Shown: positions 9,869 through 20,598, numbered from the stretch's first letter. The stretch: 64,000 nt of DNA from Acidobacteriota bacterium (GCA_036337765.1 JAYZDP010000161.1:3021-67020); one strand, 5' to 3'. Numbers and translations are program-made. Notes: generated from the sequence alone by a model not told the origin.

Positions 9869-11611
9869 ATGAACGAGCGTATTCCGCCACGAAAGTACCT
9901 CCTCTTGGCCGCCCTGACGGGCCTCCTCGCGGCATTGCCCGTCGTGGCCCAGGAGGGCAATCCCGGCGTGCAGGGCAGTCACTGGACCAACGATCAACCG
10001 GTCGGTGACGGCGGCGGGCCGGTGACCGCATCGGCGCTCGAAGAGTCGCCAACGGCCGCCAACTGGCTGCACTACGGTGGCAACTACCAACAGTGGCGCC
10101 ACAGCCCGATCACGTCGCTGACGCCCTCGAGCATCGGCGACCTGCGCCCAGCCTGGATGCTACCGACGGGCATCTCGGTGCAATTCGAGGCCTCGCCAGT
10201 GGTCTACGACGGCGTCATGTACGTGACCTCGTCGTACAACCGGCTGTTCGCACTCGACGCCGCGTCGGGGAAGATCCTCTGGCGCTACGATCATAAGTAC
10301 CCGGTGGATCTGCGTATCTGCTGCGGGCCGATCAATCGCGGCGCGGCCATCTCCGGGAATGCAGTGCTCATGGCGACACTCGATGCGCGCCTGATCGCCT
10401 TCGATCGCAAGAGCGGCGAGATCCTGTGGGACGTGGAGATCGCGCCCTACGCCAAGGGCCTGAGCTCCACTTCGGCTCCTCTCGTGGTCGGCGACGTCGC
10501 GGTCATCGGTGTCGGTGGCGGCGAGTACGGCGTTCGCGGCTTCTTCGATGGCTACGACATCGAGACCGGCGAGCGCCGCTGGCGCCACTACACGATTCCG
10601 ACCGACGGCGAGCCTGGCATCGAGACCTGGGCCGGAGACTCCTACAAGAGCGGCGGCGGTGCCACCTGGGTCAGCGGCTCGTACGATCCCGACACGGACA
10701 CCCTGTTCTGGGCCGCCGGCAATCCGAGCCCGGACTGGAACGGCGATCTACGTGCCGGCGACAACCTGTACTCCGATGCGATCCTGGCCGTCGATCCGCG
10801 TACCGGCGATCGCAAGTGGCACTTCCAGGCGACGCCTCACGACGTCTGGGACTACGACGGCAACAGCGAGATCTGGGTGGTCGACATCGAGCACGACGGC
10901 GCGACGGTCCCCGCGGTCGTGCAGGCGAACCGCAACGGCTACTTCTACGCGATCGATCGACGCAACGGCGACTTCCTGTTCGCCAAGCAGTTCGTTGACC
11001 AGCTCAACTGGGCGACGCTCGACGAAAACGGCCGCCCGATCGTGGATCCGAAGATGATGCCGCAGGACGAGCCGACCCAGCGTGTTTGCCCCGGGCTGGC
11101 CGGCGGCAACCAGGGCTCCTACGCCGGTGCCTACAGCCCCGAGACCGGCCTCGCATACGTGCCGGTCATCGAGAGCTGCATGATGTTCCGCAAGGGCATC
11201 GTGGTCTTCGTCGAGGGCATTCCGTTCATGGGCGGCGAGCCGGTGGCGGTCGACACCATGGCCGGTAAGAGCTACGGCCACCTTAGCGCTATCGATGTTT
11301 CCACCGGTGAGACGAAGTGGCGCTACGAGGATCCGTACCCGATGATGGCCGGAGTCCTCTCTACCGCCGGTGGCGTGGTCGTCACCGGCAACATGGAGGG
11401 GCACATCCTGGCCTTCAACGCCGAGAGCGGCGAAGAAGTGTGGCGCTTCAACGCGGGCTCCACGATCCGCAGTCACCCGGTCGCCTACCAGGCTGACGGG
11501 CGCACCTTTCTGGCGGTGGGCATCGGCGGCGGCGGAGTTGTGGAGGCGGTGGTCGGGCGTCCGGCGATCAATCCCAACGGCGGCGTTCTGATGGTCTTCG
11601 AGCTGCCGTAG
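9869..11611 (+). CDS. PQQ-dependent alcohol/methanol dehydrogenase family, XoxF/PedH-like (lanthanide-type signature)
   Basis: Signal peptide; WLHYGGNYQQWRHSP; vicinal Cys-Cys (ICCGPINRG, 10319-10324); WDYDG with Asp at +2 of the catalytic Asp (10850-10858). Confidence 0.8.
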   Translation: MNERIPPRKYLLLAALTGLLAALPVVAQEGNPGVQGSHWTNDQPVGDGGGPVTASALEESPTAANWLHYGGNYQQWRHSPITSLTPSSIGDLRPAWMLPTGISVQFEASPVVYDGVMYVTSSYNRLFALDAASGKILWRYDHKYPVDLRICCGPINRGAAISGNAVLMATLDARLIAFDRKSGEILWDVEIAPYAKGLSSTSAPLVVGDVAVIGVGGGEYGVRGFFDGYDIETGERRWRHYTIPTDGEPGIETWAGDSYKSGGGATWVSGSYDPDTDTLFWAAGNPSPDWNGDLRAGDNLYSDAILAVDPRTGDRKWHFQATPHDVWDYDGNSEIWVVDIEHDGATVPAVVQANRNGYFYAIDRRNGDFLFAKQFVDQLNWATLDENGRPIVDPKMMPQDEPTQRVCPGLAGGNQGSYAGAYSPETGLAYVPVIESCMMFRKGIVVFVEGIPFMGGEPVAVDTMAGKSYGHLSAIDVSTGETKWRYEDPYPMMAGVLSTAGGVVVTGNMEGHILAFNAESGEEVWRFNAGSTIRSHPVAYQADGRTFLAVGIGGGGVVEAVVGRPAINPNGGVLMVFELP

Positions 11612-12400
11612 ATGCGCATGGTCAGAACGTTTCTGGTCGTGCTCGTCTTCGCCTGCGCCGCGCCAGCGGGGGCGCTCAAGGTGTGTTTCCTCGAGGACGA
11701 TCTGCCGCGCGCACACCGTGCGACCGAATCGGGCTTCGACTTCGAGATTATGAGCGAGCTTGCCGTCATTCTCGACGACGTGCTTGAGCCGGTGTGGATC
11801 CCGTCGCAGGACGGGTTCTCTGAGATCGAGTCCTCCGACCTGCCCCTCGACAAGGTCGCGAGCGGCGAGTGTGTCGCGCTGGCGTCGGTTCCTGGCGAAG
11901 CCGCGCTTGGCCGGTACCGCGACGAGCTTTATCTCTCGAAGCCTTACTACGGTGCTGGCTTCGAGCTGATCGGCGCTGCGTCTGTCGGCACGCTCGATGA
12001 ACTTCGTGGCAAGAAGGTCGCGGTGCGCCTACAGAGCCTCGCGCACGCTGCCCTGGGCGCCCTCGGGGTCGACTGGATGGTGCGTCCGACCGTCGAGGAG
12101 ATGCTGGCTCTCGTGGAAAGCGGCGAAGCCGACGCCGCGCTGGCTTGGGGACCGGCTCTGGCTCCCCTCGGTCGCAAGCCGGCGCCCGGCTTCGAGCCTC
12201 CGCAGGCGCTGCGCTGGAACGAGCATGTCGTGATCCGCGCAGACGTGCCGCTCGGCGCTTGGATCAACCTGACCCTCGATGGGCTCGCCGAATCCGGACG
12301 TCTCGAGGCGCTCGCTCACAAGTACGGGATTCCGTATCATCCACCCTTCGCCACCACCTCGGACCCGGCTGCCATCCGGCGGCTGCGTTCCGGGGGCTGA
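11612..12400 (+). CDS. Periplasmic solute-binding-like protein, MxaJ/XoxJ-like (quinoprotein dehydrogenase-associated)
   Basis: 262 aa with a signal peptide and a type-3 SBP-like sequence. Its ATG immediately follows the dehydrogenase stop. Confidence 0.55.
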   Translation: MRMVRTFLVVLVFACAAPAGALKVCFLEDDLPRAHRATESGFDFEIMSELAVILDDVLEPVWIPSQDGFSEIESSDLPLDKVASGECVALASVPGEAALGRYRDELYLSKPYYGAGFELIGAASVGTLDELRGKKVAVRLQSLAHAALGALGVDWMVRPTVEEMLALVESGEADAALAWGPALAPLGRKPAPGFEPPQALRWNEHVVIRADVPLGAWINLTLDGLAESGRLEALAHKYGIPYHPPFATTSDPAAIRRLRSGG

Positions 12401-12437
12401 GCGCCTCCCAACTACCGAGATCTTGAGGAGTCCAGAG

Positions 12438-12878
12438 ATGAGCTGGCCGAGCACCGTTCCTTGCCTGGCTGTCGCCAGCGTGATCGCCGTTGCTGGTTGC
12501 GCCTCCAGTGGCGGGCCTGTTGCCGAGGCGCCCACCGCTGCGACCGAGCGCGAGCCGGTAGTTGCGGCCGAGGCTCCCGCGCCAGCCGAAACGACGCCAG
12601 CGTCGGCCTACCTTGCAGATGAAGCCGCCCTGAAGCGGGCCAGCCAGCTTTTTCGCGCCGTGTGCACGGGCTATTGCCACACCACCGAGGGGGCCGGCCG
12701 CGAAGCTCCGGATCTGTTCGACTGCGAATCCATGCACGGTGGATCCGACCAGGAGGTCTTCACGGTCATCACGGGCGGGTTGCCGAACACGCAGATGCAG
12801 GCCTTCGGCGGCAAGCTGCCCGACGAGGATCTCTGGCGCATCGTCGCGTACCTGCGCGCCAACTCGACCTGTAGCTGA
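12438..12878 (+). CDS. Class I c-type cytochrome lipoprotein with unusual CX3CH motif
   Basis: The ATG is preceded by GAGGAG. Lipobox VIAVAGC. Haem motif VCTGYCH (12663-12680). Distal Met context NTQMQAFGGKLPDEDLWRIVAYL. Confidence 0.7.
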   Translation: MSWPSTVPCLAVASVIAVAGCASSGGPVAEAPTAATEREPVVAAEAPAPAETTPASAYLADEAALKRASQLFRAVCTGYCHTTEGAGREAPDLFDCESMHGGSDQEVFTVITGGLPNTQMQAFGGKLPDEDLWRIVAYLRANSTCS

Positions 12879-12883
12879 TCGCG

Positions 12884-13915
12884 ATGCGCGCCGGCATCTA
12901 CAGAGGCCGCGACACCATGCGACTGGAGGAGGTGCCCGTTCCGGTCCCGGGGCCTGACGAGGTCCGAGTGAAGGTCGAGGCCTGCGGTGTGTGCGGCTCG
13001 GACCTGCATGTCTACCGAAGCGACTCTCGGCAGGAGATGCTCGGGATGACCCTCGGCCACGAGTTTGTCGGTACCGTCGACGATGCGGGCTCGAGTGCGA
13101 CGTTCCGGGTCGGCGATCGGGTCACCGTCGAGCCGCTGCTGTCGTGTGGCGAGTGCGCGCCGTGTCTCTCTGGCCGCAGCACCGGCTGCGCTCAATTCGG
13201 CCTCATCGGCATGCAGCAGCCCGGCGGCTTCGCCGACTACGTGGTGGCACCGGATCGCAGGCTGTTCCACGTGCCCGACGATCTCGAGCCGGCGATCGCC
13301 GCCTTGGCCGAGCCGGTGGCGGTGTGCGTGCGCGGCATCGACCGTGGGCGCATGGAGCCGGGAGAGCACGTGCTGGTCTTGGGCGGTGGCACGATCGGGC
13401 TTCTCACGGTTGCGGTGGCGCGCCTGCGCGGCGCTGGAAAGATCTCAATCACCGCGCGCTATCCGCACCAGGCCGAAGCGGCTGTCGCGCTCGGCACCGA
13501 TGAGGTTCTCGACCCCGAGACGGTGACCTCGCAGCACATGGCAGATTCTCTTCGAGAGTCTCCGCCGACTCTCGTCGTCGAGACCGTGGGTGGCGGCGCG
13601 CCGACGGTCCAGGCCGGCTATGCGGCAGCGGCACCCGGCGGCAGGGTGGTCGTACTCGGGGTCTTCTTCGAGCCCATGACCGTGGAACCGCTGGTCCTGC
13701 TGCGCAAGGAGGTCAGCCTGATCTGGTCGCTGTGCTACGTACGCCGAGCAGACGGCGGCTCGGACTTCGCCGAGGCGATCGGGATGATCTCGAAGCACTC
13801 GGAGCTCTTCGCCAGGATCCTCACTCACCGCCGGTCGCTCGACGAGGTGGCGGACGCCTTCGCGCTTTCCGACGACAAGAGTCGCGAGACGATCAAGGTC
13901 ACGGTGTTCCCGTGA
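12884..13915 (+). CDS. Zinc-dependent alcohol dehydrogenase (MDR family, threonine/sorbitol DH-like)
   Basis: CGVCGSDLH, GHEFVGTV, structural-zinc CGECAPCLSGRSTGC, and GGGTIGL Rossmann motif. Confidence 0.85.
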   Translation: MRAGIYRGRDTMRLEEVPVPVPGPDEVRVKVEACGVCGSDLHVYRSDSRQEMLGMTLGHEFVGTVDDAGSSATFRVGDRVTVEPLLSCGECAPCLSGRSTGCAQFGLIGMQQPGGFADYVVAPDRRLFHVPDDLEPAIAALAEPVAVCVRGIDRGRMEPGEHVLVLGGGTIGLLTVAVARLRGAGKISITARYPHQAEAAVALGTDEVLDPETVTSQHMADSLRESPPTLVVETVGGGAPTVQAGYAAAAPGGRVVVLGVFFEPMTVEPLVLLRKEVSLIWSLCYVRRADGGSDFAEAIGMISKHSELFARILTHRRSLDEVADAFALSDDKSRETIKVTVFP

Positions 13916-13925
13916 GCGCGGGCCA

Positions 13926-14822
13926 ATGACCGCCGTTGCGCCCAATTCGAATCCGGCGCTGCAGGCGTTGCTCGAGCTGCTTGAGATGGAGCGCATCGAG
14001 GTCAACCTGTTTCGCGCCCAGAACGGGCCGAGCCAGCACGTCTTCGGCGGGCAGGTACTCGGCCAGGCGATCGTCGCTGCGTCGCGCACAGTCGAGGACC
14101 GGCACCTGCACTCGATCCACGGCTACTTCCTCCGCCGCGGCGACGCGTCGACTCCGATCCTCTTCGACGTCGATCGTATTCGCGACGGATCGAGCTTCAC
14201 GACCCGGCGTGTGGTCGGTATCCAGCACGGCCAGGCGATCTTCAACATGTCGTCGTCGTTCCAGCGCGCCGAGAAGGGGCTCGAGCATCAGGGGGAGATG
14301 CCCGACGTGCCGCCGCCGGAGGAGCTGCAGTCAGATCGCGGCTTTTACCGCGAGCGCGCCAAGGTCGACCCGGGCGTGGAGCGCTACTCGTTTCGCTACG
14401 AGGCGATCGAGAGCCGCCAGGTCGAGGGTCTGCACATGGTGCCGCGCCAGCGGCGTGAGGCGCACGAGCCTCGCAAGCACACCTGGATGAGGACGCGCGG
14501 TGCCTTGCCCGAAGATCCGGTCGTTCACGGCTCGTTTCTGGCTTACATGTCCGACATGGACTTCATGTCGACCTCGATGCTGCCGCACGGGCCGGAGCTT
14601 GCCTCGTACACGATCCAGGGCGCGACGCTCGACCACGCGATGTGGTTCCACCGCCCCTTCCGCGCCGACGAGTGGCTGCTGTTCTCGAAGGAGAGCCCGT
14701 CCGCGGCAGGCTCGCGAGGGTTCGTGCGCGGCCACTTCTTCGACCGCGAAGGCCGGCTGGTGGCGTCTACGACGCAGGAGTGTCTGATTCGGCTTCGAGA
14801 GCGGCGGGTGGACGTTCCGTAG
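13926..14822 (+). CDS. tesB: Acyl-CoA thioesterase II
   Basis: 298 aa, double hot-dog. LLELLEMERIEVNLFRAQ...GGQVLGQA...SIHGYFLRRGD...SLDHAMWFHRPF. Confidence 0.85.
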   Translation: MTAVAPNSNPALQALLELLEMERIEVNLFRAQNGPSQHVFGGQVLGQAIVAASRTVEDRHLHSIHGYFLRRGDASTPILFDVDRIRDGSSFTTRRVVGIQHGQAIFNMSSSFQRAEKGLEHQGEMPDVPPPEELQSDRGFYRERAKVDPGVERYSFRYEAIESRQVEGLHMVPRQRREAHEPRKHTWMRTRGALPEDPVVHGSFLAYMSDMDFMSTSMLPHGPELASYTIQGATLDHAMWFHRPFRADEWLLFSKESPSAAGSRGFVRGHFFDREGRLVASTTQECLIRLRERRVDVP

Positions 14823-16281
14823 CGGCGACCGATCCCTGCACAGCGGCTCGAGGCGGTAGGTTCAGCGCCGTCGCCTCGCCCAGGAAGGTGCGAATCTCGC
14901 CCGCTCCGAGTCCCGGAGCAGCGGCCAGTCTCCAGGCGTCGATGTCGGCTGCCAGGAGCAGCGAGCCGCGCGGCCGGCGATGCTCGAGGTAGGTGCCGAG
15001 CAGCTCGGCAGCGCCGGGCTCGAGCTCGTGCAGTTCGGCGCCGTCGATGATGACGAGCGACTTGGAGTCGTCGCGTCGGAGACGGGTGTGCAGAGCATCC
15101 CTATCCCGTTCTTCGGCGAGCTCTTTCAGCAGGTCGTCGAGGCGGGCGTAGGTGACGCTGTGGCCGGACTCGACCATCGCCCTGCCGAAGGCCGCCGCGA
15201 GCTCGGTCCGCTGTGGCCGAGGGCCGCCGGTGAGAACGAGATGGCGACAGTGCTCGATGAACCTCTCGTCGCCGATGAGCTCGCCCAAAGTACCGGCCTC
15301 CTCGCCGGCGGGCCCGGTGAGTAGCGTCGCGAGATCCGTGCTGGGCGGTAGCCGCGACGTCTTGCGAAGCCTTTCTATGGATTCGGGCCAGCTCTGTCTC
15401 GCGCTTCGTTTCCATCGGGTGTGGGGCCAGAACCAAAGCTCCGGCGCCTCGGCGACCCGGTCCTCGATCACCTTCATGTAGCGGCGCGTCAGGCGCACGA
15501 TCTCGGCCTCTCCCTTGTCTTGCGGAACGATCGGCTCGTGGAAGGTCACCGTGTAGCGGCCGTCCCCGCGGGGTACGCAGAAGATCGGCACCGCCGGCGC
15601 ACCGGTCGCGATCGACAGCTGCGCAGGGACCGACGTGGTCCAGGCGAGTCGGCCAAGGAACGGGATCAGCACACCCTCGGTCGGGCGCACCCGCTGGTCG
15701 ATCGCCATCGCGATCACTCCATCGGCGCGCAGGATGTTGAGCATCTTGTGCGCGCTACGGCGTCGGGGCACCTGTTCGACTCCCGTTCGGCGTCGCAGCT
15801 GTGCGATGTCGTCGGCCACGAGTCGATTGTTTTGGGGCCGATACAGGATGTGCATTTCGCCGACTTGCTTGGGGGCCGCGTAGGTGATGAGGTCCCAGGA
15901 GCCGAAGTGTGCGGTGAGTAGGAAGGTCCCGTTTCCTCGTTGAAGCGCACTGTGGAGATGATGCAGACCCTCGAACTCGAAGATATCGTCCAACGCTTTG
16001 CCTTCGTACCCTGAAACCGCGAGAGCTTCGAGAAAGGCAGAGCCGAAGTGTGCGAAGCAGCGACGGCCGAGCGCGTCGCAATCCTCGGCGCTCTTGGCCG
16101 GAAACGAACCGGCGAGGTTCTTCTGAGTCAGGCGACGCCGGCTGGCCAGCAGTCGGTATGCGACCCGACCGAACCACCTCCCGAAGCTCGACACCGCGCG
16201 GCGAGGCAACAGGTGAATGCCGCGACTCAATAGCCAGTAGCCGCAGTACTGCAGTCGGTGAGCGAGGCTTCGAGAGGTCAT
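14767..16281 (-). CDS. LpxL/HtrB-family (lipid A-type late) acyltransferase fused to a degenerate DnaC/IstB-like AAA+ domain
   Basis: The N-terminal ~300 aa are LPLAT/LpxL-like (...LLTAHFGSWDL...). The C-terminal ~200 aa (about 14767-15384) read HLVLTGGPRPQRTELAAAFGRAMVESGHSVTYARLDDLL...SLVIIDGAELHELEPGAAELLGTYLEHRRPRGSLLLAADID, matching the DnaC/IstB layout with altered Walker A and B. Confidence 0.65.
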   Translation of the reverse strand: MTSRSLAHRLQYCGYWLLSRGIHLLPRRAVSSFGRWFGRVAYRLLASRRRLTQKNLAGSFPAKSAEDCDALGRRCFAHFGSAFLEALAVSGYEGKALDDIFEFEGLHHLHSALQRGNGTFLLTAHFGSWDLITYAAPKQVGEMHILYRPQNNRLVADDIAQLRRRTGVEQVPRRRSAHKMLNILRADGVIAMAIDQRVRPTEGVLIPFLGRLAWTTSVPAQLSIATGAPAVPIFCVPRGDGRYTVTFHEPIVPQDKGEAEIVRLTRRYMKVIEDRVAEAPELWFWPHTRWKRSARQSWPESIERLRKTSRLPPSTDLATLLTGPAGEEAGTLGELIGDERFIEHCRHLVLTGGPRPQRTELAAAFGRAMVESGHSVTYARLDDLLKELAEERDRDALHTRLRRDDSKSLVIIDGAELHELEPGAAELLGTYLEHRRPRGSLLLAADIDAWRLAAAPGLGAGEIRTFLGEATALNLPPRAAVQGSVAATERPPAALEAESDTPAS

Positions 16282-16526
16282 TTCGGGGAGGAGACCGCCG
16301 CACCTTCAACGTAGGCCACGATGTCGCCGACGGTGTCGAGGTCGGCCGCGTCCTCGTCGCTGATCACGACCCCGGTCGACTCCTCGATCTCGATCAGAAG
16401 CTCCAGTGCCTTCGGCGAGTCGATGCCCAGATCGACCATCAGATCCATGCCGGGCTCGAGCTCGTCGACCGGCCGCTCACTGATCCGCGAGATGGTCTCG
16501 AGGGCTTTCTGCGCAGGATCGCTCAT
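16278..16526 (-). CDS. Acyl carrier protein (stand-alone)
   Basis: 82 aa with the phosphopantetheine-site context LGIDSPKALELL. ATGA overlap with the acyltransferase start. Confidence 0.8.
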   Translation of the reverse strand: MSDPAQKALETISRISERPVDELEPGMDLMVDLGIDSPKALELLIEIEESTGVVISDEDAADLDTVGDIVAYVEGAAVSSPK

Positions 16527-16709
16527 GTCTCCTCGAACTTTAGGATTGGACGCGCGCCAGCGACGTCGTATTGTGCCGGGTTGGGACTTGGTCAGAAGGT
16601 GACTAGGGCGGGGAGTGTAGCAGCGCTGAGCCCTTCCAACCTGAAGGGGCGGTGGTGCGAAGCGACCTTTGCAGTATGCTGCGCGCCGCCTCCCCCCCGA
16701 GCCGCGAAA

Positions 16710-17516
16710 ATGAAGATCCCGCGCGTCGTTCCGATCCTCGAGAAAGAGCGCATCCTGCGCCTGTTCCACCAGGCGCAGGAGGCCCAATGGTCCGCCCGCG
16801 CCATCTCCTGGGACGCTCCGCAGGTGCTGACCTCGAGCGTCTCGAAAGATCGGATGGCGCGCCTGTTGACACCGATCTTGATGAGCGAGCAGTCCGCCTT
16901 CCACTCCGCGTCGAGGCTGCTGCCGATGCTCGACGAGGCCGGGGAGGCTGAGAGCCAGTACTACATGACCACCTGGATCGTCGACGAGGCGCGCCACGCG
17001 GAGCTCTTCTATCGGCTGCTGAAGCGTTTCGATCGCGAGCCGCTGTCGCCGCGGCGCTTCCCGGCCGCCTACATGTTCCACTCGCGAAACCGTTCGGCGG
17101 AGCTGAATGTCTTTCTGTCGGGGCTTCTGATCATCGAGGTCCTGGCCAAGAAGGCGATGACCGAGTTCTTGCGGATCGACGTCGACACCGCGCTATCGGA
17201 GATCTGCGAGGGCATCCTGCGCGACGAGGCTCGCCATCTCAGCTTCAATCGCATCTACATCGAAGACCACCTTGCCGGCCTCGAGGCGTCGGACCCGGCT
17301 GTCGCGGAGGCCTGCGGCGTACGCCTGACCGATCACATGGAGAGCCTACTCGCCGGGGTCCCGGAGTTCCTGGGGAGCATGCGGGCTGACTTCGACGACA
17401 TCGGCTTTCAGACCGAGATGGTCGTCGAGGAGCTCCGCGTCGAGGCGCGCCAGCGGATGGAGCGCTCGGTCGCCAAGGGAAGGGACAGAGGCTCGAGAGC
17501 CCCTACGACCTCGTAG
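16710..17516 (+). CDS. Ferritin-like diiron-carboxylate protein (R2 / acyl-ACP-desaturase-like superfamily)
   Basis: Start at MKIPRVV. Two E...DEARH pairs (LMSEQ...VDEARHAE; IIEVLA...RDEARHLS), the classic E/ExxH x2 diiron ligand pattern. Confidence 0.6.
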   Translation: MKIPRVVPILEKERILRLFHQAQEAQWSARAISWDAPQVLTSSVSKDRMARLLTPILMSEQSAFHSASRLLPMLDEAGEAESQYYMTTWIVDEARHAELFYRLLKRFDREPLSPRRFPAAYMFHSRNRSAELNVFLSGLLIIEVLAKKAMTEFLRIDVDTALSEICEGILRDEARHLSFNRIYIEDHLAGLEASDPAVAEACGVRLTDHMESLLAGVPEFLGSMRADFDDIGFQTEMVVEELRVEARQRMERSVAKGRDRGSRAPTTS

Positions 17517-17537
17517 GCACCGAGTTCGTGACCGGCC

Positions 17538-17915
17538 TCAAGCGCCATCGAGGGTGATCTCGATCCAGGCCCGTTTGGCCTTGCGCCCGGTGAGGCTGGC
17601 GAAGAAGTCGAGGAGGCGCATCTGCAGACCGTACTTGGAACGGATCGTCCCGTGGGCCTGTTCGATGGCCGCGGCGTCGTCCATCAGGGTGGCGTTCGCG
17701 TCGTGCCACTCGCCATGCACGGCCCCTCGAGCGCCGCATGCGGCCACCCGGGCTCGGGAGGAGTTGCGCAGTCGCTTCACCTTGCCCGCCTTCGACTCCG
17801 AAAAGACGTAGTAGTGCCCGTCACGCTCCGCGAACCAGACCGGTGTTGGCACCTCTCGGCCAGTCTTTCGGAACGTGACCAGGCTGAGGTAGCTCTCACC
17901 TGCGAGGGGATCCAC
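17538..17915 (-). CDS. PPOX-class (pyridoxamine 5'-phosphate oxidase-like) F420/FMN-binding protein
   Basis: 125 aa. SYLSLVTFRKTGREVPTPVWFAERDGHYYVFS..AGKVKRLRN is typical of the PPOX class F420-dependent family. Confidence 0.7.
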   Translation of the reverse strand: MDPLAGESYLSLVTFRKTGREVPTPVWFAERDGHYYVFSESKAGKVKRLRNSSRARVAACGARGAVHGEWHDANATLMDDAAAIEQAHGTIRSKYGLQMRLLDFFASLTGRKAKRAWIEITLDGA

Positions 17916-17941
17916 GCTGCGATTCTACTTTGGCTGGTCAG

Positions 17942-18199
17942 CAACGCATCCTCGGCGCCGAGGATGCCGACTACCTGGTAGCTCTGGCCACTCAGGGTGA
18001 GGCTCGACCCCAGCAGCGACGGGTCTTCGCCGAAGCGCGTCCGCCATACGGCGTTCGAGAGGACGACCGCGGGCGGACCGCCGTACGCCTGCTCGTCCAC
18101 GGTCGGCAGGCGTCCGAGATCCGGCTGCCAGCCGAGCATCTCGAAGAATCCCTGCGTATGCTGGAGCACGGTCAACGGCGCCGAAGGTGTTGGTTGGGT
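17942..18199 (-). pseudogene. Fragment of an ADOP/MacB-type permease periplasmic domain
   Basis: Translation ...FFEMLGWQPDLGRLPTVDE...PPAVVLSNAVWRTRFGEDPSLLGSSLTLSGQSYQVVGILG matches the MacB_PCD consensus. It has no N- or C-terminal TM parts and no plausible start. Confidence 0.5.
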
Positions 18200-18293
18200 C
18201 GCGATCGGTGAACGCGACCAGACGCTGCGTTGTTTCGCGACACCCCGGCCCGCCGGCACGGAGCTTGTACGATTCCGGACCGGAGGAAGAATC

Positions 18294-18782
18294 ATGGTCG
18301 ACGCGGATCTCGCGGCTCGGATCGGACGACTGGAGGACATTGAGGCGATTCGCCGGCTCAAGGCGCGGTACTGCTATGCCTGTGACGATGGCTACGACAC
18401 CGACACGCTGGTCGATCTGTTCGTCGAGGATGCGGTGTGGGATGGCGGGGATCTGGGAGTGGCCGTCGGGCGAGAGAAGATCCGGCGATTCTTCGACAAC
18501 ACCCCGGCCGTCATGCCTTTTGCGGTCCACATGGTGATGGACCCGCTGATCGACGTCGATGGCGATCGGGCGACTGGGGCCTGGTACCTCTTCCAGGCGG
18601 CGACCTATGCGCCGGACGGCACCGCGCTGTGGGGCTCGGCTCGCTACGACGAGGAGTACGTCCGCACGGCGCAGGGCTGGAAGTTCCAGAGTCTGCGGCT
18701 GACCTCGCACTTCTGGACACCCTTCGACGCCGGCTGGCTCGAGAAGCGCTCGATATTCGAGCAGCCGCAGGAGGCCGAGTAG
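18294..18782 (+). CDS. SnoaL-like / NTF2-fold protein
   Basis: GGAGGA sits 7 nt upstream of the ATG. RLEDIEAIRRLKARYCYACDDG...WYLFQAA is typical of the SnoaL_4 family. Confidence 0.7.
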   Translation: MVDADLAARIGRLEDIEAIRRLKARYCYACDDGYDTDTLVDLFVEDAVWDGGDLGVAVGREKIRRFFDNTPAVMPFAVHMVMDPLIDVDGDRATGAWYLFQAATYAPDGTALWGSARYDEEYVRTAQGWKFQSLRLTSHFWTPFDAGWLEKRSIFEQPQEAE

Positions 18783-18784
18783 GG

Positions 18785-19696
18785 ATGGTGCCCGAGCAGC
18801 TGTCGATCGGGGTAGACGCGGGCGGCACCAACATCAAGGCAGTCGCGATCGGTGGGGATGGTGCGATTCGCGCTCAACTGGCGCTGGCGACGCCGCAGGA
18901 CCGCGATGGCCTGATTGATGCGGTCGCCGGGCTGGTGGCCGACGTTGAATCCGAGATCGGCAAGACTGCCGCGAACGTCGGATTTTCTGCTCCGGGGCTT
19001 GCGGCGCGTGATGGCCACTCGATCGCCTGGATGCAGGGGCGGATGGAAGCGGTACAGGGCCTCGACTGGACCTCGGCGCTGGGTCGCGATGCGCCGGTTT
19101 GGGTGCTCAACGACGCTCACGCGGCGATCGTCGCCGAGGCCTGGTTGGGGGCGGCGGTGGGGTGCCGCAACGTGGTCTTGTTCACCCTGGGTACCGGAAT
19201 CGGTGGGGCAGTCATGGTCGACGGACGGTTGCTTCAGGGGCAGTTGGGCCGTGCCGGGCATCTCGGGCACCTGTCGCTCGATATCGACGGCGAACCGGAC
19301 ATCTGCCGAGCTCCTGGCAGCCTCGAGGATGCGGTGGGTGACTGCACGATCGAGGCCCGCAGCGGCGGGCGCTTCTCGACGACCGCGGACCTGGTCGCTG
19401 CGGCCGAGACAGGCGACGAGGGTGCCAGGCACGTATGGAGGCGGTCGGTGCGGGCGTTGGCCTGCGGCATCGCGTCGCTGATCAACGTCGCCGATCCGGA
19501 GATGGTGGTGCTCGGTGGCGGCATCGCCAAGGCCGGGAAGGCTCTGTTCGAGCCGCTCGGACGGGAGATGCAAGACGTGGAGTGGCGACCGGTTGGCGGC
19601 GATGGGGTGCCGATCGTCCCGGCGGCTCTAGGTGAGAACGCCGGAGCGATCGGCGCGGCCCGTTACGCCGCTGCACAGAATAGCGGAGCGACATGA
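18785..19696 (+). CDS. ROK-family sugar kinase (glucokinase-like)
   Basis: IGVDAGGTNIKAV; LNDAHAAIVAE; ROK motif GxGIGGAVMVDGRLLQG..G.AGHLGH. Confidence 0.8.
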   Translation: MVPEQLSIGVDAGGTNIKAVAIGGDGAIRAQLALATPQDRDGLIDAVAGLVADVESEIGKTAANVGFSAPGLAARDGHSIAWMQGRMEAVQGLDWTSALGRDAPVWVLNDAHAAIVAEAWLGAAVGCRNVVLFTLGTGIGGAVMVDGRLLQGQLGRAGHLGHLSLDIDGEPDICRAPGSLEDAVGDCTIEARSGGRFSTTADLVAAAETGDEGARHVWRRSVRALACGIASLINVADPEMVVLGGGIAKAGKALFEPLGREMQDVEWRPVGGDGVPIVPAALGENAGAIGAARYAAAQNSGAT

Positions 19697-20598
19697 GTGA
19701 AGCGACGAAGCAGCGGCCCGTGACATGGGAGGCCTACGAGGCGACCATGGCCCGCATGATCTCGCCGGAGGGGATCGCGAAGGGGCTGGCGTTCCGGCCA
19801 CGGCCAACCGACGTCGTCATCTCGCCCTACTCAAAGAGCGGTACGACCTGGATGCAGCAGATCGTTCACGGGCTGCGCACCCGCGGCGACATGGACTTCG
19901 ACGACATCTCGCGCGTGGTTCCATGGATCGAGACGGCACACACCCTAGGCATCGATTTGGAGGCGGAGCAGGTCAGCGAACCGAGGGCCTTCAAGAGCCA
20001 CCTGCCGGGCGATCTCGTGCCGGCGGGCGCCCGCTACATCGTGCCGTTTCGAGATCCGAAGGACGCCCTGGTGTCGCTGTACCACTTCATGGAGGGGTGG
20101 TTCTTCGCTCACGGGGCGTTCACGCGCGAAGAGTTCGCGCGCGGTCACTTCTATCTGCGTGGGAAGAAGCGGGACTATTGGCACCATCTGCGCACCTGGT
20201 GGGCGCGGCGTGATGAGACCGACGTGATGCTCCTCACTTTCGAAGGAATGAAGGCCGACCTTGCCGGCACCGTGCGGCGGGTGGCAGCCTTCCTTGGGCT
20301 CGACCTGGACCCTGACCTCGAGAGAGTCGTCGTCGAGCAGGCCTCGCTGCAGTTCATGCTGGCTCACAAGGACCGTTTCGACGATCTGCTGATGCGTGAG
20401 CACTCCGAGCGCAACGCGCTCCTTCCAGCCGGCAGCGACTCGGCCAAGGTGCGCGAGGGGAAGGTCGGTGCTTCGAAAGTGGAGCTATCGGCGGATCTGT
20501 CAGCGGAGCTCGAGGAGCTGTGGCGCGACGAGATCGAGGCCCAGATCGGGTTCGCCTCATACGCCGAGGTATGCGACGCGTTAGCGCAGCGAATCTAG
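19693..20598 (+). CDS. PAPS-dependent sulfotransferase (cytosolic SULT-like fold)
   Basis: 5'-PSB loop SPYSKSGTTWMQQIV and 3'-PB motif VPFRDPKDALVSLYHF. ATGA overlap with the ROK kinase stop. Confidence 0.8.
   Translation: MSEATKQRPVTWEAYEATMARMISPEGIAKGLAFRPRPTDVVISPYSKSGTTWMQQIVHGLRTRGDMDFDDISRVVPWIETAHTLGIDLEAEQVSEPRAFKSHLPGDLVPAGARYIVPFRDPKDALVSLYHFMEGWFFAHGAFTREEFARGHFYLRGKKRDYWHHLRTWWARRDETDVMLLTFEGMKADLAGTVRRVAAFLGLDLDPDLERVVVEQASLQFMLAHKDRFDDLLMREHSERNALLPAGSDSAKVREGKVGASKVELSADLSAELEELWRDEIEAQIGFASYAEVCDALAQRI

Follow-up and report, generated by a model that had tools for sequence, protein, structure and literature searches.

An IstB-derived AAA+ core joined to an LpxL-type acyltransferase in a marine Acidobacteriota locus

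The subject of this analysis is a 504 amino acid protein in which an LpxL-type acyltransferase is joined to a AAA+ core derived from IstB, the helper protein of IS21, together with the genes that surround it. The gene lies in a 64,000-nucleotide stretch of DNA from an Acidobacteriota bacterium (GCA_036337765.1 JAYZDP010000161.1:3021-67020), which we call the window, and the genes of the locus are found within positions 13,926-17,516. The window is a part of contig C161 of a metagenome-assembled genome (MAG; genome G000) with a size of 3.99 Mb in 235 contigs and a completeness of 90%. The publicly recorded relatives of this genome are MAGs of the Thermoanaerobaculia (Acidobacteriota), and DNA that is near-identical to the window is found in marine metagenome runs of several studies, from seawater and cold seeps. 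The codon-position GC content of the tesB, acyltransferase, acyl carrier protein (ACP) and diiron genes is normal for the genome (4 of 4). The features of the locus are as follows, with positions counted from the first nucleotide of the window.

14767-16281, - strand: fused acyltransferase gene, 504 aa (P0001; open reading frame, Pfam and models)
15406-16245, - strand: Lip_A_acyltrans domain (PF03279), aa 13-292 (Pfam E 2.5e-49)
15892-15909, - strand: H125-x4-D130 motif, within the acyltransferase domain
14848-15396, - strand: IstB-derived AAA+ core, aa 296-478 (Pfam, alignment to IstB and fold search)
15205-15228, - strand: degenerate P-loop GGPRPQRT, aa 352-359 (aligned with the IstB P-loop)
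15031-15054, - strand: degenerate Walker B VIIDGAEL, aa 410-417 (aligned with Walker B)
14770-14847, - strand: disordered, unconserved C-terminal tail, aa 479-504 (model confidence and family alignment)
16278-16526, - strand: acyl carrier protein, 82 aa (P0002; Pfam PP-binding)
16527-16709, no strand: intergenic spacer of the divergent ACP and diiron genes, 183 bp (gene ends)
16710-17516, + strand: ferritin-like diiron-carboxylate protein, 268 aa (P0003; PF11583)
13926-14822, + strand: tesB, TesB-type acyl-CoA thioesterase II (P0004; Pfam)
12884-13915, + strand: Zn-dependent alcohol dehydrogenase-family gene (conserved context of the fused gene)

The fused protein, its family and its origin

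The fusion is a genuine two-domain protein, in which an intact acyltransferase of the LpxL/LpxM/PatA fold is followed by an IstB-derived core. The PF03279 match of P0001 scores 168.5 bits against a gathering score of 22.3, and the IstB_IS21 profile (PF01695) is matched at aa 303-446 with an E of 6.2e-12 and 46 bits against a gathering score of 24.1, covering positions 50-193 of the 238 in the profile. In NCBIfam both halves are recognised and neither reaches an equivalog cut-off; the IS21_help_AAA equivalog, for example, scores 62.7 bits against a cut-off of 200. An AlphaFold model of aa 296-504 has a predicted local distance difference test score (pLDDT) of 89.2, and a Foldseek search with this model places IstB chains on top (8q4d_E with an E of 3.1e-10 and a template modelling (TM) score of 0.74, 8q3w_A with an E of 7.2e-10; TM 0.72-0.74), followed by 5bq5, DnaC and DnaA. 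The model of the full-length protein (pLDDT 92.3, predicted TM score 0.89) finds LpxM (5kn7, E 7.5e-14) and PatA (5f2z_C, E 9.9e-13) first and IstB next, and a predicted TM score of 0.89 for a protein of two domains suggests that the modelled domains are held in a fixed mutual orientation. The tail is a different matter in the model, with pLDDT values below 50 at aa 482-492 and 496-504, and it is unaligned across the family. At the junction the terminal helix of the acyltransferase (W-x-W-x-H-x-R-W) passes directly into the IstB linker ("IERLRK-S-LP..."). The captured IstB segment starts at the linker helix and stops just past the sensor-1 strand; the N-terminal domain of IstB, the first ~50 IstB residues and the last ~45 positions of the profile (194-238) are without a counterpart in the fusion.

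The acyltransferase half looks active. The catalytic motif of LpxL/LpxM-type acyltransferases is H-x4-D/E, and P0001 carries it as H125-FGSW-D130, with H125 invariant and H-x4-[DE] present in all ten aligned fused proteins (10/10). The relatives found by fold include enzymes that depend on acyl-ACP and on acyl-CoA.

The motifs of the IstB part are degenerate throughout the family. Walker A, GxxxxGK[ST], is found in none of the 22 fused sequences and in 69 of 71 IstB-like representatives, and since it is absent from all 22, the C-terminal domain (C-domain), judged from its motifs, cannot be an ordinary ATPase; it would no longer bind or hydrolyse ATP. The P-loops of the fused proteins differ in both sequence and length, with insertions and deletions (GGPRPQRT, GSNG-VAD, GE---VAE and others), and because of this variability nucleotide sensing by the family is unlikely. 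Walker B in the form hhhhD[DE] stands at the aligned column in 2 of the 18 full-length fused proteins, P0001 having lost the acidic pair, and the T/S-N of sensor 1 is replaced (LLLAADI in P0001), with no Asn column kept in the family. The C-domain is net acidic in 14 of the 18 (range -10 to +4) and the N-terminal acyltransferase domain (N-domain) has a charge of +8 to +23. A basic, DNA-like C-domain surface for binding the ACP or the membrane was also considered, and was dropped on account of this acidity. The initial annotation of the window had read the last ~200 aa as a DnaC/IstB-like AAA+ layout, with GGPRPQRT as Walker A and IIDGAE as Walker B. The profile match and the IstB-first fold search bear this out, and both motifs lie where it had put them, in line with those of IstB. 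It had also proposed a non-hydrolysing or nucleotide-sensing module, of which the first half stands and the second is disfavoured by the unconserved P-loop.

The fusion is conserved in a small family, as seen from several searches that take up the phylogenetic survey which had been advised for it. Of the 14 proteins that a word-based search returned, three combine the acyltransferase and IstB Pfam domains: P0001 itself, and P0005 and P0006, which are 48% identical to it. An exhaustive HMMER search with the C-domain as query returned 137 matches; eight of these are full-length fused proteins, 478-507 aa in length, in which the match starts near residue 297. The fused family comprises ~22 sequences, of which 18 are full-length and the others fragments of fused proteins (P0019, P0021, P0026 and P0056); P0072, in which a different N-terminus is joined to a genuine IstB, was left out as a member. 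Among 61 related genomes a match beyond residue 440 is found in eight, our own included (G000, G003, G004, G008, G013, G014, G052 and G055). Another genome, G002, is a possible carrier (match 6-379), and in G001 the match ends at the end of the contig. When 301 genomes were sampled evenly across the class, the matches listed extend beyond residue 440 in G000 and G052 only, with G002 partial; 22 weaker matches of this sample stand outside those listed, and in five genomes of the sample, all unpublished, the match is of unfused length. The fused open reading frames (ORFs) of the related genomes are 457-504 aa long and free of stops, and five of the eight other fused loci have a Pfam IstB match at E <=0.001. 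A scan of metagenome contigs for the loci of P0005 and P0006, the two closest relatives, recovered neither of these and only one partial fused locus (L099). Searching the ESM Atlas with the P0001 structure gave only clusters in which PF03279 is unfused or otherwise fused, and no usable feature match. No publication describing such a protein was found for an IstB-acyltransferase or IstB-LpxL fusion or for a domesticated IstB/AAA+ fusion.

Both domain trees fit a single event, in which the IstB core would have been captured once and in frame. The acyltransferase-domain tree has 105 rows; six others were excluded from it, L014 and L018 as duplicates, L002 as a distant paralog, and L015, L062 and L074 as truncated. 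In this tree the fused proteins fall within a 26-row clade together with eight unfused enzymes, and 14 of the fused proteins form one group. When the 18 fused rows of the N-domain tree are constrained to one clade, the likelihood is above that of the free quick search, with a p value of 0.8 in the approximately unbiased (AU) test. The C-domain tree holds the 22 fused sequences and 71 IstB-like representatives, and all 22 lie to the same side of a branch whose SH-aLRT support is 93, with P0056 counted as a fused fragment. An indication of separate C-domain origins (AU p 0.036 against one clade) was obtained with this same fragment counted as an IstB, and was rejected. The genome itself holds no high-scoring stand-alone IstB as a possible donor. 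There is no istA next to the fused gene, whose neighbours in the window are tesB, the ACP gene, the diiron gene and the alcohol dehydrogenase gene (inverted repeats were not searched for). The C-domain tree puts two metagenome proteins of ~308 aa (P0022 and P0032) close to the fused clade; these have a ~110-aa N-terminal part of no known kind followed by an intact IstB-like AAA+ domain (GxxGxGKTH), and appear from their motifs to represent a different, ATP-competent IstB architecture.

The carrier protein, FAAL and the diiron protein

The ACP that is encoded directly upstream of the fused gene matches the PP-binding Pfam domain with an E of 3.1e-11, and its attachment serine, Ser37, lies in a DSP motif (16416-16418). 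The stop of the ACP gene overlaps the start of the acyltransferase gene, as the + strand TCAT at 16278-16281 reads ATGA on the - strand. Unfused sister enzymes of the acyltransferase are found in operons of the order FAAL-ACP-acyltransferase, where FAAL stands for fatty acyl-AMP ligase, at L013, L071, L075, L091 and L104; at L107 the ACP is present and the locus is cut upstream. P0002 is 49-55% identical to the ACPs of these five operons, with a hidden Markov model (HMM) score of 132 bits. A private ACP, predicted to feed an LpxL-type enzyme, is a real and recurring module. The FAAL ortholog of our genome is found on contig C59 (49% identity, E 6.6e-156), and we infer that FAAL is the acyl-activating component, one which was absent from the initial annotation. 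No chain-elongation genes of the FabZ/FabF type are seen among the annotated neighbours of the locus, from 9.9 to 20.6 kb.

On contig C59, on the same strand after FAAL (L187:2234-8262), there are a 431-aa ORF without a Pfam match, an enoyl-CoA hydratase gene and a gene for a 738-aa fusion of Pyr_redox_2 with AIRS/AIRS_C. A Pyr_redox_2 and AIRS/AIRS_C-type fusion in genome G033 (L189:4857-9491) adjoins diiron and radical S-adenosylmethionine (SAM) genes. Such neighbours, including the Pyr_redox_2-AIRS fusions, may be further members of the module.

The diiron protein (P0003) is a weak match to PF11583, the family of the arylamine N-oxygenase AurF (33.3 bits against a cut-off of 29.6). Its six predicted ligands, E60, E93, H96, E143, E173 and H176, are invariant in all 25 aligned homologues (25/25). 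Profile matches in the PDB are to the R2-like ligand-binding oxidase and ribonucleotide reductase R2 type (9.4e-9) and to aldehyde decarbonylase (6.7e-4). R2-like ligand-binding oxidases and aldehyde decarbonylases both bind lipid-type ligands. In the ESM Atlas, P0003 finds only generic ferritin-like and acyl-ACP desaturase clusters. In four of the six fetched loci the diiron gene stands directly before FAAL, with an ACP downstream once and a DUF374 acyltransferase-like gene downstream once, and at L075 the FAAL, ACP, acyltransferase and diiron genes are all found together. At this last, unfused locus, radical SAM/SPASM and glyoxalase-family genes lie between the acyltransferase and diiron genes (L075:9185-10871). 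A DUF374 gene follows the diiron-FAAL pair at L192:8826-9518.

The gene arrangement given in the initial annotation agrees with ours: the ACP coordinates, the ATGA overlap, the 56-nt overlap with tesB and a ferritin-like diiron protein with E/ExxH pairs, divergent from the ACP-acyltransferase pair, are all recovered. Its assignment of tesB to the acyl route is not supported, since tesB stands beside the acyltransferase at the window's own locus and at none of the others among 178 loci. The thioesterase itself is recognised by its Pfam domains (5.1e-40), with 279 bits for TIGR00189 against a cut-off of 292.85 and 304 for NF007817 against 481. The 3' overlap of the two genes, 14767-14822 (56 nt), corresponds to the acyltransferase's C-terminal tail, which is disordered and unconserved. 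From the gene orders, tesB is probably outside the module and the convergent overlap incidental. Two of the marine contigs that cover the window (X2 and X3 runs) have an in-frame 3-nt deletion at 14801, inside this overlap, and the X2 contig also lacks one nucleotide at 16692, within the ACP/diiron spacer; these are the sole indels seen. A promoter scan of that spacer (16527-16709) found no sigma-70-like site.

The Zn-dependent alcohol dehydrogenase gene recurs downstream of other fused genes and directly convergent on them, as a 55%-identical copy in L003/L014 and as a 27%-identical copy in L007/L018. Upstream, the other fused genes have unrelated neighbours, among them cyclophilin, MsrA (twice), pterin dehydratase and redoxin genes. 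Further out in the window, at 9869-12878 and 17538-20598, there are genes for a pyrroloquinoline quinone (PQQ)-dependent dehydrogenase, a c-type cytochrome, PNPOx-like and SnoaL-like proteins, a ROK kinase and a sulfotransferase, none of which recurs beside the fused gene in the other loci.

Comparison with known systems

The acyltransferase half has in common with LpxL/LpxM and PatA (5kn7, 5f2z) the PF03279 domain, the fold and the H-x4-D/E motif. P0001 differs from these enzymes in the additional 180-aa AAA+-fold domain, in scores below the NCBIfam LpxL and PatA cut-offs and in the absence of linkage to lipid A genes. The acyl donor of P0001 is probably acyl-ACP. For the C-domain the best match in both sequence and structure is the IS21 helper IstB (PF01695; 5bq5, 8q3w, 8q4d), from the linker helix through the sensor-1 strand. 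Unlike IstB, the fused domain lacks Walker A, Walker B, sensor 1, the N-terminal domain and the C-terminal part of the profile, it has no adjacent istA and it is joined to a metabolic enzyme.

The closest analogue of the ACP and LpxL pair is the AcpXL/LpxXL system of rhizobia, in which a dedicated ACP and an LpxL homologue serve to acylate lipid A with a hydroxylated, very long chain. AcpXL/LpxXL loci have linked chain-elongation genes of the FabZ/FabF type. In both systems the gene of an LpxL-family transferase has that of a private ACP next to it, a likeness of gene arrangement; they differ in that our locus has no FabZ/FabF genes nearby, that activation is apparently by FAAL and that there is an extra pseudo-AAA+ domain.

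The dimetal-carboxylate site of P0003 is of the ferritin-like kind found in the soluble acyl-ACP desaturases and the R2-like ligand-binding oxidases, the latter being also its profile match. Cyanobacterial clusters of the CylA/CylB/CylC type combine FAAL, an ACP and a dimetal-carboxylate enzyme that acts on acyl-ACP (PMC8406957). As in L075 and the diiron-FAAL loci, CylC-type modules encode FAAL, ACP and a ferritin-like dimetal-carboxylate protein together, which is a likeness of gene content; in our case there is no polyketide synthase downstream and the output would be to a lipid acyltransferase. A precedent for a PF03279 enzyme that acylates a glycolipid other than lipid A is VexE, an LpxL-family acyltransferase which is reported to act on the glycolipid anchor of the Vi antigen (PMC9597891). 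P0001 is set apart by its ACP/FAAL/diiron context and its AAA+ domain, neither of which belongs to VexE. Ornithine lipid synthesis (PMC12493201) was also considered and judged unrelated.

A proposed acyl route and its alternatives

The reading that we favour, and which we hold to be rather probable, is that an IstB core which was captured once and is now dead has been kept as a non-catalytic domain of an intact acyltransferase, within an acyl route of FAAL, ACP and diiron protein. In this route FAAL, as the ortholog on contig C59, would load a fatty acid onto the dedicated ACP, and the diiron-carboxylate enzyme would oxidise the ACP-bound chain by hydroxylation or desaturation. The acyltransferase would then take the chain off the ACP and pass it on to an acceptor in the membrane, either lipid A or another glycolipid. 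Lipid A would be the simplest acceptor, because P0001 is the only strong LpxL-family enzyme of the genome. The C-domain may be a folded, mostly acidic and non-catalytic appendage, which is fixed against the basic acyltransferase domain and would have a scaffolding or regulatory role or offer a surface to a binding partner. A more far-reaching version is tentative at best: a domesticated, ATP-blind IstB domain for control or assembly might, together with FAAL, the private ACP and the diiron oxidase, make an undescribed oxidised acyl lipid, based on lipid A or another glycolipid, in marine Acidobacteriota. Here the dead AAA+ domain might gate or localise acyl transfer, for example by docking a partner or by covering a basic face for the ACP or the membrane.

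Several observations weigh against this reading. The ACP stands beside the fused gene in one of nine fused loci with flanks, by ACP HMM search, and this one is the window. FAAL is absent from the window locus. The diiron gene is found in 16 of 61 relatives, mostly far from the acyltransferase, and is near it in 2 of 178 loci. LpxC, LpxK and KdtA are present in the genome and are all encoded on contigs other than C161. The NCBIfam equivalogs of the LpxL type score below their cut-offs (NF006270 with 135.3 bits against 248; TIGR02207 with 111.8 against 297.8). Three of the eight other fused loci (L018, L095 and L097) show no Pfam IstB match at E 0.001, yet their extensions align. The mean pairwise identity is 26% for the C-domain and 42% for the N-domain, with the C-domain lower in 153 of 153 pairs. 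The conserved residues of the C-domain (G373, D405, R435 and others) are those that IstB also conserves, and there is no family-specific surface; such a pattern is consistent with selection acting on the fold and not on a site. RNA-library contigs cover the locus in few places (X19 at 15072-15251 and 15363-15513, X20 at 17361-17547), too few to claim expression, and those of X19 over the fused gene do not prove transcription. The function that we assign to the C-domain, like the acceptor and the diiron chemistry, is purely what we infer from these comparisons.

These counts also bear on the dedicated acyl-modification and transfer route that was proposed at the outset. The orthology of the ACP with those of the FAAL operons and the adjacency of diiron and FAAL genes speak for it, and the co-occurrence of the genes is seen in the diiron-FAAL loci and in L075; it is not a trait of the fused family, and the expected synteny of ACP, acyltransferase and diiron genes is no property of that family either. 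The route is thus partly supported, as reasonable for the window locus and the sister clade and not as defining the fused family.

One alternative is that the fused protein is a plain housekeeping LpxL, which puts an ordinary secondary chain on lipid A, with the ACP a spare carrier and the diiron gene an unrelated neighbour. This fits a genome in which LpxC, LpxK and KdtA are present and P0001 is the only strong one of two PF03279 genes, and it fits the fused protein being the best LpxL-family match in most genomes that carry it, as well as the eight of nine fused loci without ACP, FAAL or diiron gene nearby. We consider it unlikely all the same: the translationally coupled ACP is specifically orthologous to those of the FAAL operons, the diiron gene is met again beside the FAALs of this kind, the LpxL equivalog scores fall short, and a second, weak PF03279 paralog exists, which in G052 adjoins lpxK. 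In our genome the second paralog is on contig C9, of 2.7 kb (L002:19-1934; 35 bits, 358 aa), and is convergent on a PP-binding ORF. In G052, what comes directly after lpxK on contig C85 (L191:13829-14881 and downstream) is a weak match to the LpxL family (C85:15721-16434, E 1.5e-10). It lies ~6 kb from a diiron-FAAL pair, and is a candidate housekeeping late acyltransferase in a genome that has the fused gene as well.

Another alternative, which we rate somewhat lower still, is that the IstB part is a neutral relic, a tolerated and functionless leftover of an old IS21 insertion. The faster divergence of the C-domain, the loss of all catalytic motifs, the lack of family-specific conserved residues and the existence of unfused sister enzymes that do without the IstB part would all be expected of such a leftover. 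Yet an open stretch of 157-180 aligned residues is kept by 18 full-length proteins, with an N-domain identity to P0001 of only 33-48%, the fold determinants are retained and the models are confident; and if all copies come from one capture, a functionless tail of 180 aa would be expected to be truncated over such a distance.

It is improbable, more so than the relic, that the C-domain is a non-canonical sensor, in which the P-loop of the P0001 subclade binds a nucleotide or the phosphate of CoA or phosphopantetheine and so gates acyl transfer. The three closest proteins do share a GGxRxxR[TC] P-loop (GGPRPQRT, GGTRPRRT and GGSRSDRC) and the AAA+ fold is intact, but this loop is without Lys, both sensor 1 and the acidic pair of Walker B have been lost, and the variation of the loop in the wider family would limit the function to three known sequences. 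That the fusion is an error of sequencing or assembly, by which two separate genes became one, is a negligible option even for a MAG of 235 contigs, as the same single frame is found in seven other genomes and nine full-length metagenome proteins, and the domain junction (~15396) is crossed without gaps by marine contigs of two other studies (X3, 14985-15604; X2, 15364-15866).

Each of the two domains is well known, their union is not described in the literature searched, and what is unusual here is the IstB core, exapted and blind to ATP. If our favoured reading, a dead IstB core kept by an intact acyltransferase, is true, this domestication would clearly exemplify the exaptation of an ATPase from a mobile element as a pseudo-enzyme domain. 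The locus is a compact gene set for expression, with a practical limit in the small size of the family (~22 sequences). The Thermoanaerobaculia are a widespread and almost uncultured group of marine and soil bacteria, and the link of an LpxL-family enzyme to a FAAL-ACP-diiron module points to an uncharacterised lipid modification in this class.

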